A DNA stretch of 50,198 bases, from the sequence record DRR723986_2405, one strand, 5' to 3'. A program made the position numbers and the translations under genes. This document shows, one piece after another, positions 41,413-50,198 of this stretch. The notes beneath the pieces were generated by a model. It saw nothing but the letters and a program-made list of their open reading frames with translations, had not been told where the DNA came from and searched no databases. Position 1 is the first letter of the stretch. Every line of letters begins with the position of its first letter.

Positions 41413-42774
41413 TTACATTGCCTCGATAGCCTCGGCAAGCGTGCTGACCGCGACGACATCCATTGCGATATCGCCGCGGGGAGCATTCGCCTTAGGCACG
41501 ATAGCGCGGCTAAAGCCGTGCTTTTTCGCTTCCTGAAGGCGCTCTTGCCCACTGGGCACAGGGCGAATTTCCCCCGACAAGCCCACCTCGCCAAAAACGA
41601 CCAAGTCTTCGGGCAAGGCGCGGTCGCGAAAACTCGATACGATGGCGAACAACAGCGCCAAGTCAGCCCCGGTCTCCAGCACCTTGACGCCACCAACCAC
41701 ATTGACGAACACGTCCTGATCGCCGAGCTGCAATCCTCCGTGACGGTGAAGCACCGCCAGCAACATCGCCAAGCGGTTCTGCTCTAACCCCACCGCAACA
41801 CGACGGGGATTGCCGTAATTACTTTCATCCACCAGCGCCTGGATCTCTACCAACAGAGGACGAGTGCCCTCCCACACCACCATCACCACGCTGCCCGCCG
41901 CCTGCACATCACCGCGATTCAGGAAAATCGCCGACGGGTTCTTAACCTCTTTCAGGCCCTGCTCGGTCATGGCAAACACGCCCAGCTCATTCACCGCGCC
42001 AAAGCGGTTTTTATGGCCGCGCAGGGTGCGATAACGGCTGTCACTGCCGCCCTCAAACATAATCGAGCAATCAATGATGTGCTCCAACACCTTCGGGCCA
42101 GCCAGCGCACCGTCTTTGGTCACATGACCCACCATAATCAACACCGTATTGGTCTGCTTGGCAAAGCGCGTTAACGCCGCGGCGCACTCTCGAACCTGGG
42201 AAACACTGCCGGGCGCCGAACTCACCTGCTCGCTATGCAATACCTGAATCGAGTCGACCACCAACACCGACGGCCGGTGCTGATTCGCCTGCGCCAATAC
42301 CGCCTCCAGACTGGTTTCGGAGTACAGCTGCAACTCCTCTGCCGACAAGCCAAGGCGGCGTGCACGCAAGGCCACTTGCTGCAGTGACTCCTCCCCGGTG
42401 ACGTACAAACAGCGGCTGCGCGCCGCCAAGCGGCACAGCACCTGTAACAACAAGGTGCTCTTCCCCGCCCCGGGGTGACCGCCAAGCAGTACCGCCGAAC
42501 CCGGTACAAAGCCACCGCCGAGCACCCGGTCCAGCTCTTCAAAGCCGCTGGCAATTCGCGGTAAATCCTCTATTTGAACGCTCGACAGACTTTGCAGTTC
42601 GCCAACAGCGCCGGCATAGCCCTGGCGCCCAGCAGGCGCCGAGGCGGCACCTGCCGCAGCCAAGCGCACCTCGGTAAGCGTATTCCAGGCGCCACAGTCC
42701 TGACACTGCCCTTGCCACTTGCGATGGTCGGAACCGCAATCACTACAAACATAGGCTGTTTTGGCCTTCGCCAT
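41413..42774 (-). CDS. radA: DNA repair protein RadA/Sms
   Basis: CSDC/CQDC zinc finger, GHPGAGKS Walker A, KNRFG motif and a Lon-like C-terminus. Confidence 0.97.
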   Translation of the reverse strand: MAKAKTAYVCSDCGSDHRKWQGQCQDCGAWNTLTEVRLAAAGAASAPAGRQGYAGAVGELQSLSSVQIEDLPRIASGFEELDRVLGGGFVPGSAVLLGGHPGAGKSTLLLQVLCRLAARSRCLYVTGEESLQQVALRARRLGLSAEELQLYSETSLEAVLAQANQHRPSVLVVDSIQVLHSEQVSSAPGSVSQVRECAAALTRFAKQTNTVLIMVGHVTKDGALAGPKVLEHIIDCSIMFEGGSDSRYRTLRGHKNRFGAVNELGVFAMTEQGLKEVKNPSAIFLNRGDVQAAGSVVMVVWEGTRPLLVEIQALVDESNYGNPRRVAVGLEQNRLAMLLAVLHRHGGLQLGDQDVFVNVVGGVKVLETGADLALLFAIVSSFRDRALPEDLVVFGEVGLSGEIRPVPSGQERLQEAKKHGFSRAIVPKANAPRGDIAMDVVAVSTLAEAIEAM

Positions 42775-42795
42775 ACTTTGTGCTCCGCTGCTGTG

Positions 42796-42825
42796 CTGAC
42801 AGAACAGGCGACTAGCCCGTACAAT
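42796..42825 (+). promoter_or_regulatory. Putative sigma70 promoter for the DnaT-like/P-like gene pair
   Basis: CTGACA-N18-TACAAT, followed by a GAGGA RBS before ATG 42852. Confidence 0.55.
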
Positions 42826-42851
42826 ACTCTGCCAAGCGAGGATAATGATTC

Positions 42852-43994
42852 ATGTCGGCGCCACTACTGGAAAGACCCCTACTGGTATCGCCCACTCTGG
42901 CAGCAACCATTGGCCTGGAGTGCGCCCTGCTATACCAGTTGCTCGCCGACTGGCAGCCCCTGCTGGAAGTCCGCCCACGCCAGGGTCAAGACTGGTTGCT
43001 TATTGACCGCCAGCGGCTCGAAGAACAACTGCCGTTCTGGCAAAGCGCCGATATTGACCGCCTGCTTCAACAACTCCACGACCAGGGACTCATTATTATC
43101 GGCGGCGCGCTGATCAGCAATGCCCGCAACATTCGCTTTGCCATGCCCGCTCAGCAAACAGGCGCGCCCCAAAACGCCCCAGCTCGGCCGGCATCGACAC
43201 GGCCCGAACCGGCAGTGCGCAGCAGCGCCCCCACCCAAGCCGTTCCCGGACGCCAGCTTATTAGTGCCGATTGGCGCCCCGACCCCGCCGCCGTGGAATA
43301 CCTCACCCGCTTCAACCGGGTGAGCAACCACTTTATCGAAGCGTGTATACCCGAGTTCATCGCCCACTACCGCGAAAGCGGCGAAGCAAGAAGCTCCTGG
43401 AGCAGCACATTTAGCCAGTACGTCAGCCGCCGCTGGAAAAAACAGCAATACGCTGAAATAGAGCAAGCCCGGCACCAAGTCATCGACAATCACTGGCGCC
43501 CCAGCCGAGACGCTCTCGACATCCTGCTGCGCGACGGCATCAGTGAGCACTTCATTGAAGACGCCATTCCCGAGTTCATTCTTTACTGGCGCGAGCGCGG
43601 CACGCAAGATAGCAACTGGAACTCTCGATTCCTACAACATATTCGATTGCAGTGGGCGCGATACACGAATGCCGTCAGCCACGAACAAGCCCATGTGCCG
43701 ATTCGCAACGACTGGCAACCCAGCCCGGAAGTCTTTGAAATTTTGCGCATGGCGAGGATCGATGCCGACTTTGCCCGCGAGCAAATACCCGAGTTTATAC
43801 TGTTCTGGCGTGACAGCGGCCAGACCCAACGCTCCTGGAATACAAAGTTTCTACAGCATGTAAAATATCGCTGGGCACACAGTCACCAACTGGACAAATA
43901 CGATGCACGACAGCAAAAAGCTTCTGGATCAAGCCAAGCGGCAACTGGCTTCATCGACAAACACACCGACCGAAGCTGGGCCGACGGCCTCTAA
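42852..43994 (+). CDS. Phage-replication-initiator-like protein: N-terminal wHTH plus three tandem DnaT-like repeats (DopC-like)
   Basis: N-terminus ERPLLVSPTLAATIGL...LPFW...LHDQGLI resembles phage initiator wHTH domains. A Pro/Ala linker precedes three ~73-aa repeats WxP...IPEFIxx[YW]R...W...F.Q.[VI]...W. Confidence 0.78.
   Translation: MSAPLLERPLLVSPTLAATIGLECALLYQLLADWQPLLEVRPRQGQDWLLIDRQRLEEQLPFWQSADIDRLLQQLHDQGLIIIGGALISNARNIRFAMPAQQTGAPQNAPARPASTRPEPAVRSSAPTQAVPGRQLISADWRPDPAAVEYLTRFNRVSNHFIEACIPEFIAHYRESGEARSSWSSTFSQYVSRRWKKQQYAEIEQARHQVIDNHWRPSRDALDILLRDGISEHFIEDAIPEFILYWRERGTQDSNWNSRFLQHIRLQWARYTNAVSHEQAHVPIRNDWQPSPEVFEILRMARIDADFAREQIPEFILFWRDSGQTQRSWNTKFLQHVKYRWAHSHQLDKYDARQQKASGSSQAATGFIDKHTDRSWADGL
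43260..43875 (+). repeat. Three diverged intragenic protein repeats
   Basis: The WxP Trp codons at 43272, 43494 and 43713 are spaced 222 and 219 nt apart, and each repeat contains IPEFI. Confidence 0.85.
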
Positions 43995-44571
43995 GCCACT
44001 GCCGGATAAGAGCGCTGTTATCGACGCCATCAACCGCATGTTTGCGGAGTTTGAGCTCGTCTATCACAACCAATACAACAAAGCCTTCGCAAACGCCGAG
44101 AAGCTCTCTTATGCCAAGAAGCTTTGGTTCAGCAACCTTTGCCATATTCCACCAGAGCAAATTACCGCAGCCTGTCATCGCGCTATTCGCGAGTCTGAAT
44201 TCCTGCCGACGATCAAAGGCATTTTGAAATACTGCGAACCCGACGACCAAGCACTGGGCCTGCCAGACCCCCACAGCGCCTATGTAGAGGCTTGCAGAGC
44301 GCCCTCACCCAAAAATGAATACCGCTGGTCCCACCCCGCGGTTTACCACGCTGGACGCAAAAGCGATTGGTATTTTCTGGCAAACAATACCGAGCAGCAG
44401 GCCTTCCCGGTCTACAAGCGCCACTACCAGGCGCTGTGCGAGCAGGTGCGCAGCGGTCACACACTAGAACCCCCGCATCCAGAGGCGCTTCCCGCACCGG
44501 AGGCAAAGCCTCTGGAACCGGAAGAACAGCGCCGTCGTATGCGGGAAATGCGCAGTAAATTGAATATCTAA
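43903..44571 (+). CDS. Lambda replication protein P-like protein (DopE-like putative helicase loader)
   Basis: [17 protein letters not shown]....KYC and GLPD...[15 protein letters not shown]...W and F..YKRHY..LC motifs are characteristic of the phage P family; it directly follows the O/DnaT-like gene. Confidence 0.8.
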
Positions 44572-44657
44572 CAACGGCCGTGCAGGCCGCCGTCGCAGCG
44601 GATACAATATCGCCGCACGTGCGCGATCAGCGCCCCACGCCCCTCGGGACAAAAACT

Positions 44658-45407
44658 ATGGCAGACGACAAAACAACCCACTTCGGTTTTAAAACCGTCA
44701 ACCGCGGTGAAAAAGTAAACATGGTAGCCGGCGTATTTCACTCGGTAGCCGGCAAATACGACTTAATGAACGACCTCATGTCCGGGGGCATTCACCGACT
44801 TTGGAAGCGTTTCACCATTGAACTTTCCGGCGTCCGACGCGGCAATAGCGTGCTCGACATCGCAGGCGGCACCGGCGACTTGGCGGCCAAATTCAGCCGT
44901 TTAGTTGGCAGTGAAGGCAAGGTTGTGCTTGCCGACATCAACGACTCAATGCTCCAGGTGGGCCGCGAAAAACTAACCAATCGCGGCATTGTCGGTAATA
45001 TTGAGTATGTGCAGGCCAACGCCGAGTGCCTGCCCTTCCCGGACAATAGCTTCGACTGCATTACCATCGCCTTTGGCCTGCGCAATGTCACCGACAAAGA
45101 CGCCGCGCTGCGCTCTATGCTGCGCGTACTGAAGCCAGGCGGGCGCTTGCTGGTGTTGGAATTCTCCAAGCCGACCAATGAATTAATGAGCAAGGTCTAC
45201 GACCGCTACTCCTTCGACATTCTGCCGCGCATGGGCAAGCTCATCACCAATGACGAAGACAGCTACCGCTATCTCGCCGAGAGCATTCGTATGCACCCGG
45301 ACCAGGAAACCCTTAAGGAAATGATGGCCGAAGCCGGTTTTGCCGAGGTCCGCTACCACAATATGACGGCCGGCGTGGTTGCCGTTCACCGGGGCGTCAA
45401 GCCGTGA
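44658..45407 (+). CDS. ubiE: Ubiquinone/menaquinone C-methyltransferase
   Basis: [39 protein letters not shown] and [10 protein letters not shown] motifs; ATG at 44658. Confidence 0.97.
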
Positions 45408-48728: not shown

Positions 48729-49181
48729 ATGTTTGACATCGGCTTTGCCGAACTGCTGCTGATCGCTGTACTCGGTCTGCTGGTATTAGGGCCCGAGCGC
48801 CTGCCAACCGCAGTGAGAACAATCAGCTTATGGCTAGGACGGCTGCGCAGAAGCTTTACCAGCATTCGCCAGGAAATCGAACGAGAGGTCGGCGCCGATG
48901 AAATCCGCCGACAGCTCCACAACGAGTCGATAATGGCTTCGCTGGAAGACAGCAAACAATCCCTGCGAGACGGCCTTGAAAGTGCCGCCGACGACATCCG
49001 CTCTGTTGAGCGCTCGCTAAGCCGCGCCAATGCGAAGCAGGACGCCGAGGACGACACGCCCGAGCCCGCGCTGGACGAGCACCCCATTGCCCCGGAAGTG
49101 ACAGAGGCCGACCCAGAAGCAGCCCCCGACGCCAGTAATAACACCCCCACTAAAGAAAAAGGCAGCGACCCCGCGCCATGA
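48729..49181 (+). CDS. tatB: Twin-arginine translocase TatB
   Basis: [26 protein letters not shown]. Confidence 0.96.
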
Positions 49182-49987: not shown

Positions 49988-50198
49988 TTAGTAACCGGGG
50001 TCGTCGTAATCGCCAAAGGCGAGATTTTCGAAGCGCGTAAATTTACCAATAAAGCTCAATCTCGCGGTTCCGATGGGGCCGTTACGTTGCTTGCCGATGA
50101 TGATTTCCGCAACGCCTTTATCTTGCGTTTCTTCGTTGTAGACCTCATCACGATAGATAAACATGATGACGTCGGCATCCTGCTCGATCGCACCGGAT
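49988..50198 (-). CDS. dnaB: Replicative DNA helicase DnaB (C-terminal end; starts beyond the window)
   Basis: Not in the ORF track. Manual minus-strand translation gives [69 protein letters not shown], with the stop at 49988-49990. Confidence 0.96.

Follow-up and report, generated by a model that had tools for sequence, protein, structure and literature searches.

A dopC-dopE operon of a Spongiibacter chromosome as a candidate phage-derived loader of the replicative helicase DnaB

We analysed a stretch of 50,198 nucleotides (nt) from sequence record DRR723986_2405, called the window throughout, in which two overlapping genes occupy positions 42852 to 44571. A preliminary description, made from the letters alone, had taken them for an orphan pair of the lambda O/P kind, domesticated in a bacterial chromosome as the loader of the replicative helicase DnaB. 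The pair is the Spongiibacter copy of the published dopC-dopE genes, an already known family. These phage-derived genes were proposed in 2017 as the DnaB loader where the usual loaders are absent (PMC5509034). The two genes and their parts are the following.

42852-43994, + strand: dopC, an intact open reading frame (ORF) of 380 amino acids (aa) with three DnaT domains (Pfam)
42873-43142, + strand: N-terminal winged helix of DopC, residues ~8-97 (PHROG, structure model, Foldseek)
43260-43889, + strand: three tandem domains resembling DnaT's C-terminal domain (CTD), residues ~137-201, 210-274 and 283-346
43965-43991, + strand: DopC tail T-D-R-S-W-A-D-G-L, with the conserved D-x-S-W-A
43903-44571, + strand: dopE, an intact ORF of 222 aa and candidate helicase loader of the lambda P type (PF06992, phrog_109)
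43903-43994, + strand: dual-coding overlap of dopC and dopE, 92 nt, with dopE in the +1 frame relative to dopC
43912-43950, + strand: N-terminal helix of DopE, residues 4-16, candidate N-terminal lasso (structure model)
44518-44559, + strand: C-terminal helix of DopE, residues 206-219, candidate C-terminal lasso (structure model; aligns to the C-terminal segment of lambda P and of PAJU2 P)

The 2017 paper describes DopCE of Cellvibrionales and of Oceanospirillales lacking dciA as the same pair, with the same gene order and domains, namely a helix-turn-helix (HTH) with the DnaT CTD, followed by lambda P (PMC5509034). The accessible text of that paper also gives the same non-prophage context, taxon, absence of dciA and dnaC and lack of origin features, and nothing essential in it differs from the window (PMC5509034). 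Its genome set includes Spongiibacter sp. IMCC21906, and its authors call for experimental validation (PMC5509034). The paper (Brezellec et al. 2017) had been cited in the preliminary description; it exists and says what was attributed to it (PMC5509034). No experimental test of DopCE was found in the literature searched, with subscription-only papers and supplements outside reach, and in the accessible text of two later papers DopE is mentioned only by citing the 2017 one (PMC11087808, PMC12661323). The earlier judgement that the pair is described in silico and functionally uncharacterised therefore holds for this literature. In the accessible main text of the 2017 paper we did not find the overlap of 89-92 nt, the tail shared with phage initiators, the two to four DnaT units, the linkage to dnaB and radA or the empty slot between lpxC and secA (PMC5509034), all of which are described below.

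In terms of domain content, DopC is dominated by its three DnaT domains (Pfam, E 2.1e-70, 232.8 bits in total). Their limits come from three PF17948 matches of 74-95 bits each in the identical gene of G001, the comparison genome nearest to the window, mapped onto the window. A profile search matched the repeats to the Escherichia coli DnaT structures 9zbu, 9zbt and 4ou6, in the C-terminal domain only, and the signatures W-Q-P-D and F-I-x-Y-W align between the DopC repeats and E. coli DnaT. Residues 7-84 match the PHROGs entry for a DnaD-like loader/replication initiation protein. The best Foldseek matches of the winged helix-turn-helix (wHTH) are entries for initiator N-terminal wHTH or Rep-DNA structures (4pql, 4pt7 and 5kbj; probability 0.99-1.00, E 0.02-0.2). 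The structure model, with a predicted local distance difference test (pLDDT) of 73.5, consists of a winged helix (14-97), a disordered linker, three three-helix units and a disordered tail (347-380); its predicted template modelling score (pTM) of 0.33 means that the relative placement of the three DnaT units is not readable as a filament. The number of DnaT units in DopC is 2, 3 or 4, depending on lineage.

The wHTH followed by DnaT-like repeats that had first been noticed from the letters alone is thus recovered by Pfam, PHROGs, the model and Foldseek. As for the label "lambda O-like", it stands for the HTH class and for a short C-terminal tail, both shared with O-type initiators, and falls for the remainder of the protein. 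There was no DopC match to Phage_rep_O (PF04492) at E<=1 in Pfam, and hhalign of DopC against lambda O gave E 0.95. No AAA+ or IstB domain was matched in either protein, and NCBIfam has no model for DopC or DopE.

The second gene was rightly called phage-P-like. DopE matches Phage_lambda_P (PF06992) with E 4e-13 and 49.9 bits against a cut-off of 26, over profile positions 2-161 of 162, and the PHROGs family "P-like helicase loader" (phrog_109) with E 3.3e-27. Its model (mean pLDDT 79.9) shows an N-terminal helix (4-16), a disordered stretch (14-31), two helical bundles (36-111 and 123-183), a disordered linker and a C-terminal helix (206-219). The best five Foldseek matches in the Protein Data Bank (PDB) are all lambda P chains of the DnaB-lambda P complexes 9oa1 and 9oa2; the best three have a probability of 1.00, TM 0.44-0.63 and 17-19% identity. 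Alignment by hhalign to the P protein of phage PAJU2 covers 194 columns (E 5.6e-23, 99.5% probability). When the DopE profile was run against PDB sequences, lambda P was not retrieved, and the best match was SPP1 G39P (E 0.038).

The plan of lambda P comprises four domains, and its N- and C-terminal lassos take hold of DnaB (PMC12661323). The helix of the C-terminal lasso binds the DH-LH junction between DnaB subunits, and the N-terminal lasso binds at the breach of the ring (PMC12661323). As modelled, the layout of DopE matches this plan, and its N-terminal helix would correspond by position to domain I of lambda P (PMC12661323). By analogy, the C-terminal helix of DopE is a likely candidate for the DnaB grip.

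The neighbourhood of the pair is that of a core chromosome, with these features on either side.

41413-42774, - strand: radA, with KaiC/AAA_25, zinc ribbon and Lon_C/ChlI domains (Pfam); divergent, 77 nt upstream of dopC
42796-42825, + strand: sigma-70-like promoter candidate for dopC-dopE, CTGACA-18-TACAAT, with 10/12 consensus matches only
44580/44659-45407, + strand: ubiE (Pfam Ubie_methyltran, E 1.3e-102), followed by ubiJ and ubiB
49988-50197, - strand: 3' end of dnaB, the last 69 DnaB residues; convergent with dopE

The distance from the dopE stop to the dnaB end is 5417 nt, and the DnaB C-terminus in the window is identical to the DnaB of G001. Twenty flanking ORFs between 13.9 and 50 kb of the window were scanned with Pfam. 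All are housekeeping genes (pilMNOPQ, ponA, radA, ubiEJB, hisIE, tatA, tatC, aroBK, gltD, hemE and an FMN oxidoreductase) except one at 48729-49181, in the tatB position, which has no Pfam match. No integrase, repressor or structural gene is found among these 20 ORFs. Between 42700 and 44650 there are no repeat arrays, iterons or att-like repeats, only short families of two copies.

Hence what had been read from the sequence at the outset is confirmed: two intact ORFs with a 92-nt overlap, both neighbours by their Pfam domains, the dnaB end 5.4 kb away, and the lack of phage genes and att repeats within the regions just given. The promoter is the least secure part of that observation. One consensus-like site exists, as had been claimed, with 0.6 expected in shuffled sequence, and the match to the consensus is at best a weak suggestion that the pair has a promoter of its own. 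A tblastn result in which ubiE looked unusually divergent was set aside as an artefact of the query; nucleotide identity to the related locus L002 is uniform, at 97-100% per 300 nt.

Origin features are likewise missing from the dopC-dopE locus, in terms of iterons, DnaA boxes and a skew switch. The locus contains no DnaA box even when one mismatch is allowed, and the whole window has 5 compared with 5.95 expected. GC skew is negative over all 50 kb with no change of sign, which places dopC and dopE on the G-poor strand and dnaB and radA on the other.

We then compared 61 related loci, leaving out L001, which duplicates the G001 locus. In 58 of the 61, dopE is preceded on its own strand by a DopC match; of the three others, two have no upstream sequence and one has a partial match of 42 residues. 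A divergent radA is found upstream of dopC in 47/61, and a convergent dnaB within the downstream flank in 29/61. In these 29 loci dnaB lies at 30-37 nt (3 loci), at 151 nt to 2.4 kb (8 loci) or at 5.3-5.7 kb (18 loci), the last 18 having the ubiEJB-hisIE-tat block between dopE and dnaB. Three loci with stops (L095, L099 and L105) were excluded from the DnaB alignment.

The ratio of nonsynonymous to synonymous substitution rates (dN/dS), taken pairwise against six relatives, is 0.02-0.17 for dopC and 0.03-0.15 for dopE, similar to ponA (0.03-0.10) and ubiB (0.02-0.10), with dS saturated in all but the closest pair. Both genes are under purifying selection, like housekeeping genes. The synteny and dN/dS comparisons that had been suggested as checks thus both speak for a resident pair.

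A Spongiibacter marinus record carries a DopE with 100% identity to that of the window, and a record titled Neomelitea salexigens one with 97%. The next relatives are from Spongiibacter and Zhongshania, which fall in the taxon described for DopCE, and after them come sequences with the labels Litorivivens, Haliea/Halioglobus and Cellvibrionaceae. Among phage P proteins, the nearest are those of Pseudomonas phage PAJU2 and its relatives, with 28-29% identity to DopE, and a pattern search of viral_contigs (IMG/VR) with the DopE alignment confirmed no DopE relative. A quick maximum-likelihood tree was built from 24 of the 56 resident loci with two ORFs, 17 of 35 IMG/VR loci and four named phages. 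One branch of length 2.1, with a Shimodaira-Hasegawa-like approximate likelihood ratio test (SH-aLRT) value of 99, splits the 24 resident DopE rows from the 21 phage and viral P rows. The window is placed next to the closest record of the Spongiibacter type, and the grouping further in agrees with the taxon labels. The dopC-dopE pair is resident and not mobile.

Considering the other helicase loaders, we used G001 as a proxy for the genome of the window; it is 99% complete and has 64% of sampled words in common with the window. A search of G001 for DciA (PF05258) gave 0 matches at E<=1. The one strong match to the IstB/DnaC family is the helper ATPase of an IS21 element, with 262 bits (cut-off 200), beside an IS21 transposase; with the DnaC model it reaches 30 bits where the cut-off is 357, and with the DnaI model 50.9 bits where it is 228. 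Beyond this sub-cut-off helper no dnaC or dnaI was found in G001, the DnaI N-terminal domain PF07319 not being part of the search. The absence of dciA and dnaC, which had been proposed as a check on the whole genome, is therefore seen in the proxy. The element itself is on a contig of 3.5 kb (L063, contig C15 of G001) that carries the IS21 transposase, the IstB helper and a fragment of a Tn3-family transposase, and this helper is the sole IstB/DnaC-family match above the 200-bit level in the genome.

In terms of restart proteins, PriA is present in G001, PriC has no match at E<=0.1 and gamma-type PriB has only a 20-bit match. The only DnaT-domain matches in G001 are the three inside DopC. Two relatives from the same order that are of the DciA type carry dciA between lpxC and secA. 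In G001 only 266 nt separate these two genes, with no DciA inside, which leaves the ancestral dciA slot empty; another genome of the genus has ~320 nt there, as judged by ORF sizes only.

A broader picture comes from 301 genomes drawn evenly from the order, searched with a profile built from 24 DopE sequences. DopE matches are found in 191 genomes at E<=1e-5 and in 187 at E<=1e-30, and DciA in 99 at E<=0.01, of which 80 are above the Pfam cut-off. None of the 187 genomes with a strong DopE match has a DciA match above the cut-off. By family, DopE presence is almost all-or-none (10/10, 9/9 and 9/9 in some, 0/9, 0/9 and 0/7 in others). A patchy distribution, typical of prophage remnants, had been named as evidence that would count against the idea; the distribution is instead clade-wide. 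The logic is the same as for VdhL1/2 of Vibrionaceae, where a virus-derived loader displaces dciA with complementary presence and absence (PMC11087808). DciA and VdhL1/2 are unrelated to DopE, VdhL having only borderline similarity to PF06992 (PMC11087808).

Five genomes carry matches to both the DopE profile and DciA (E<=0.01). Three of them are DopE-type genomes with sub-threshold DciA matches that contain an in-frame stop (G066, G151 and G269). The G066 match has 20.9 bits in a 60-aa frame; those of G151 and G269 were dropped as dciA relics, since they lie antisense inside ORFs of 367-437 aa and are chance matches. The other two (G071 and G165) have a real DciA and a weak P-like match (8e-19 and 1.5e-23), which we read as a putative prophage P.

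A scan with PF06992 was tried as a census and rejected. It gave 56/301 positives and missed G001, although G001 matches when searched singly; this is an artefact of filter sensitivity, and Pfam-based counts of P-like genes in such scans are consequently too low.

Gamma-type PriB is above the cut-off in 29/301 genomes, none of them DopE-positive. A specific link between PriB absence and DopE was considered and dropped, because many DciA-type families also lack PriB. One family (f52: G053, G098, G138, G202, G231, G258 and G284) has gamma-type PriB above the cut-off with no DopE match and no DciA at E<=0.01, and one further genome of it (G171) has only a 22-bit DciA match; this family may use another type of loader. 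In another family (f41: G042, G127, G162, G193, G223 and G087), with genomes of 6-7 Mb, each genome has 3-9 strong phage-type lambda P matches. Besides these, one conserved DopE-like copy in a 250-aa frame is seen in the four f41 genomes with DopE places listed, and resident and prophage P genes thus coexist there.

The C-terminal tail of DopC links it to phage initiators. Over 24 DopC sequences D373, W376 and A377 never vary, and the conservation of S375 is at least 90%. The pattern [DN]-x-[STG]-W-[AGSICV] lies within the last 16 residues of 27 of the 28 distinct DopC tails and of 4 of 1050 background ORFs, counted after the removal of 45 DopC-like ORFs, two of the four being short DopCs. In viral contigs 23 distinct ORFs lie upstream of P-like genes, and by our reading 21 of them have this pattern at their end; the tail sequences are interrelated, so that these counts are not independent. 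The O protein of PAJU2 and the ORF upstream of P in phage SC_8_H2H8_2017 end in the same motif, and related ends are seen in the replication protein of phage VW-6S (D-D-R-G-W-G) and in lambda O (N-T-D-W-I-Y-G-V-D-L). The D-x-S-W-A tail is shared between DopC and phage O-type initiators.

A different tail is found in the initiator of Salmonella phage SPN1S (L162:1270-2085). This protein has a DnaT domain and a tail nearly identical to that of E. coli DnaT (E-P-D-S-x-I-P-P-G-F-R-G, compared with dnaT of L159), and no P-like gene was found downstream of it. The case fits the idea that the short tail tracks the loader in use.

Lambda O/P and DopCE both consist of an initiator gene with a loader gene after it. 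The fold of DopE is that of lambda P, terminal helices included, and an acidic tail with D-W in it closes both DopC and lambda O. Lambda O differs in having a Phage_rep_O domain, four annotated ori iterons within the gene and an O/P overlap of 4 nt, while DopC has no Phage_rep_O domain, no iterons, three DnaT domains and the overlap of 92 nt.

A closer likeness is found in the E. coli phages TL-2011b and PPompW_132418, which have the architecture and gene order of DopCE and a T-D-W tail. In TL-2011b, the initiator with one DnaT domain and T-D-W in its tail is followed by an overlapping gene with 187.7 bits on the lambda P profile. In PPompW_132418, the initiator has one DnaT domain, a weak HTH_36 match and the T-D-W tail, and the next gene gives 61.5 bits on the lambda P profile if read from an ATG 212 nt inside the initiator gene. 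The P-like gene of these phages overlaps the initiator by 29 nt as annotated and by up to 212 nt from an upstream ATG. In contrast with DopCE, these modules are phage-borne and have one DnaT unit, compared with two to four in DopC, and tblastn at E<=1e-3 does not connect them with DopC, the sequences being too distant. More widely, E. coli DnaT detects 54 phage records, with a single matching piece in all 30 listed. The architecture of DopC was probably inherited from a phage module, with the DnaT unit multiplied in the resident lineage. Since initiators with HTH, DnaT and tail already exist joined to P-type loaders in phages, the "substitution" of lambda O features need not post-date domestication.

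Two other phage initiators differ in their ends. Those of Stenotrophomonas phage vB_SmaS_QH16 (L157:1542-2408) and Xanthomonas phage HXX_Dennis (L158:1527-2393) have 288 aa and one DnaT domain, and end in a helix of the type P-L-S-P-E-E-N-R-K-R-F, similar to the lasso at the C-terminus of DopE and lambda P. RusA, and not a P-like loader, is encoded by the next gene; these proteins may be initiators with a built-in helicase grip.

As for E. coli DnaT itself, which belongs to the PriA-PriB-DnaT preprimosome, it has the C-terminal domain that binds single-stranded DNA (ssDNA) in common with DopC, and dnaT lies directly upstream of the loader gene dnaC as dopC lies upstream of dopE. DnaT forms a multi-unit filament on ssDNA, upstream of helicase loading (PMC13377028); the filament consists of four CTD units and lies on the lagging strand (PMC13377028). 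Each DnaT chain has one CTD, its own oligomerising N-terminal domain and a different tail, whereas the N-terminus of DopC is a wHTH. The partner loader of DnaT is the AAA+ protein DnaC, that of DopC the P-type DopE.

The out-of-frame overlap of the two genes is conserved. Among the 56 loci with both ORFs it measures 89 nt in 25, 92 nt in 23, 98-113 nt in 5 and 35-44 nt in 2, with one apparently broken locus, and among the resident loci examined a single one is without it. In four more distant families, five additional loci overlap by 41-104 nt, for the most part from GTG starts. Between the upstream stop and the conserved P domain, most loci have no start codon other than the overlapping ATG, and a GGA-like purine patch lies 8-13 nt upstream of the dopE ATG. 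The true dopE start is predicted to lie inside dopC, at 43903. Nucleotide variability by codon position is 0.35/0.63/0.53 bits in the overlap and 0.70/0.58/1.17 bits in the 150 nt upstream of it; low and flat variability is what dual coding predicts. The overlap encodes the DopC tail together with the N-terminal helix of DopE and presumably ties the expression of the two genes together.

In phages the O/P overlap is 1-4 nt (in lambda, in PAJU2 and in most of 23 distinct pairs from viral contigs), the exceptions among these 23 being two small gaps and three overlaps of 28-34 nt. Four short dopC genes from other families (L163-L166, from G101, G207, G162 and G223) apparently consist of one DnaT-type unit and the tail, with no winged helix; in these the D-x-S-W motif is followed by 5-13 extra residues and dopE apparently has a GTG start.

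Contigs from RNA libraries cover the locus at 95% identity or more in four libraries from four studies, of which three are marine metatranscriptomes and one is the transcriptome of a single organism. In each run one contig bridges the dopC/dopE overlap; one extends from 42725 to 45250 and another from 42525 to 44555. Two studies have contig breaks at 44555-44587, in the stretch from the dopE stop (44571) to the ubiE start (44659). One of these contigs has an adapter-like loose end at 44581, and the contig of a third study reads through. These breaks are at most a weak hint of a transcript boundary.

Taken together, we consider that the pair is a resident dopC-dopE operon of the Spongiibacter chromosome, a phage replication module fixed in a lineage without dciA, which loads DnaB (probability roughly 0.7). 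That it is the loader of the host we infer with the support of the fold of DopE, the synteny, the selection and the distribution. Because strong DopE never occurs with above-cut-off DciA and the dciA slot is empty, replacement of the loader for initiation is indicated.

Several points weigh against this reading. We infer the DopE-DnaB and DopC-DopE contacts by analogy. The alignment of DopE to lambda P by hhalign is weak (E 1e-3, probability 21%), although it runs over 178 columns that include the C-terminal helix, and DopC has no lambda O domain detectable with Pfam or hhalign. The domain plan of DopC also varies. Two Spongiibacteraceae-like loci have only 2 DnaT units, and in five loci of four other families the dopC ORF has just 144-295 aa from stop to stop; in the four short ones of 144-163 aa the profile aligns only from about position 115-123, with no wHTH part matched, so that the wHTH is not universal. 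The statements on the whole genome rest on the proxy G001, and PriB absence says little, since many DciA-type families are also without gamma-type PriB. Furthermore, DopE and DciA are both without a match in 16 of the 301 genomes, so loaders may be missed or be of other kinds, and the claim of no other loader is not airtight. Lastly, the RNA-library contigs may contain DNA and show neither strand nor transcript ends.

A role in restart only, an option already raised in the 2017 paper (PMC5509034), is unlikely, though the most probable of the alternatives. DopCE would then reload DnaB in a PriA-dependent manner, with initiation at oriC left to DnaA alone or to an unrecognised factor. The conserved core of DopC is a DnaT-type ssDNA-binding unit with a tail, the wHTH being missing in several families, and E. 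coli DnaT acts in restart (PMC13377028). The restart inventory of G001 agrees with this, as it includes PriA with no PriC match, PriB or stand-alone DnaT; however, PriB is also absent from many DciA-type relatives. Strong DopE is never accompanied by above-cut-off DciA, the dciA slot is empty and lambda P works at an origin, all of which speak for initiation as well.

We regard it as quite improbable that the pair is a fixed prophage remnant, dispensable for host replication and kept for another benefit such as phage exclusion by titrating DnaB. A strong DnaB binder could indeed hamper phages (PMC5509034), the phage ancestry of the pair is clear and some genomes of the order also carry several phage-type P copies. 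Against this, the pair is conserved throughout the clade, its place next to radA and dnaB is fixed, its dN/dS resembles that of housekeeping genes, the 20 flanking ORFs (13.9-50 kb) include no prophage genes, and strong DopE and above-cut-off DciA are never together. Finally, we give next to no credence to DopC as a lambda-O-like initiator that fires a secondary origin in or near dopC: its N-terminal wHTH resembles the DNA-binding domains of plasmid and phage initiators, but some families have no wHTH, the region 42700-44650 contains no iteron arrays, DnaA boxes are missing from the locus and no more frequent in the window than expected, the skew stays negative across all 50 kb, and skew minima lie at gidA-dnaA in 13 genomes (PMC5509034).

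For the preferred reading of a resident operon that loads DnaB, a mechanism can be proposed by analogy. DopE would bind the DnaB hexamer of the host at its subunit interfaces through helical lassos at both ends. Its C-terminal helix would grip DnaB, and the ring would be opened as it is by lambda P, after which DopE would deliver DnaB to ssDNA. DopC would be the adaptor for DopE: its three linked DnaT-type domains may wrap ssDNA in the manner of the E. coli DnaT CTD filament, and its D-x-S-W-A tail, inherited from phage O-type initiators, would dock the DopE-DnaB complex. Loading would take place at oriC opened by DnaA, at stalled forks bound by PriA, or at both.

A more specific version is tentative and we hold it to be possible, with the odds against it. 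DopC may imitate the DnaT filament within one chain, with two to four covalently joined DnaT units that bind ssDNA and, at its end, an O-type tryptophan tail for docking the loader. A single operon would in this case combine the roles of lambda O as adaptor, of DnaT as restart adaptor and of lambda P as loader, and would serve both oriC and PriA-bound forks, so that DciA, PriB, PriC and DnaT are not needed. The overlap would be kept because two elements that interact, the tail of DopC and the N-terminal lasso of DopE, are both encoded there.

How DnaB is loaded without DciA or DnaC/DnaI has been an open question since 2016-17, with DopCE as the standing candidate. The window adds no new kind of system, and its details sharpen the experiments. 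The dopE start inside dopC, the invariant tryptophan in the DopC tail, the C-terminal helix of DopE and the array of several DnaT units are all experimental handles. With strong DopE matches in 187 of the 301 genomes, the question concerns a large and ecologically important marine group.

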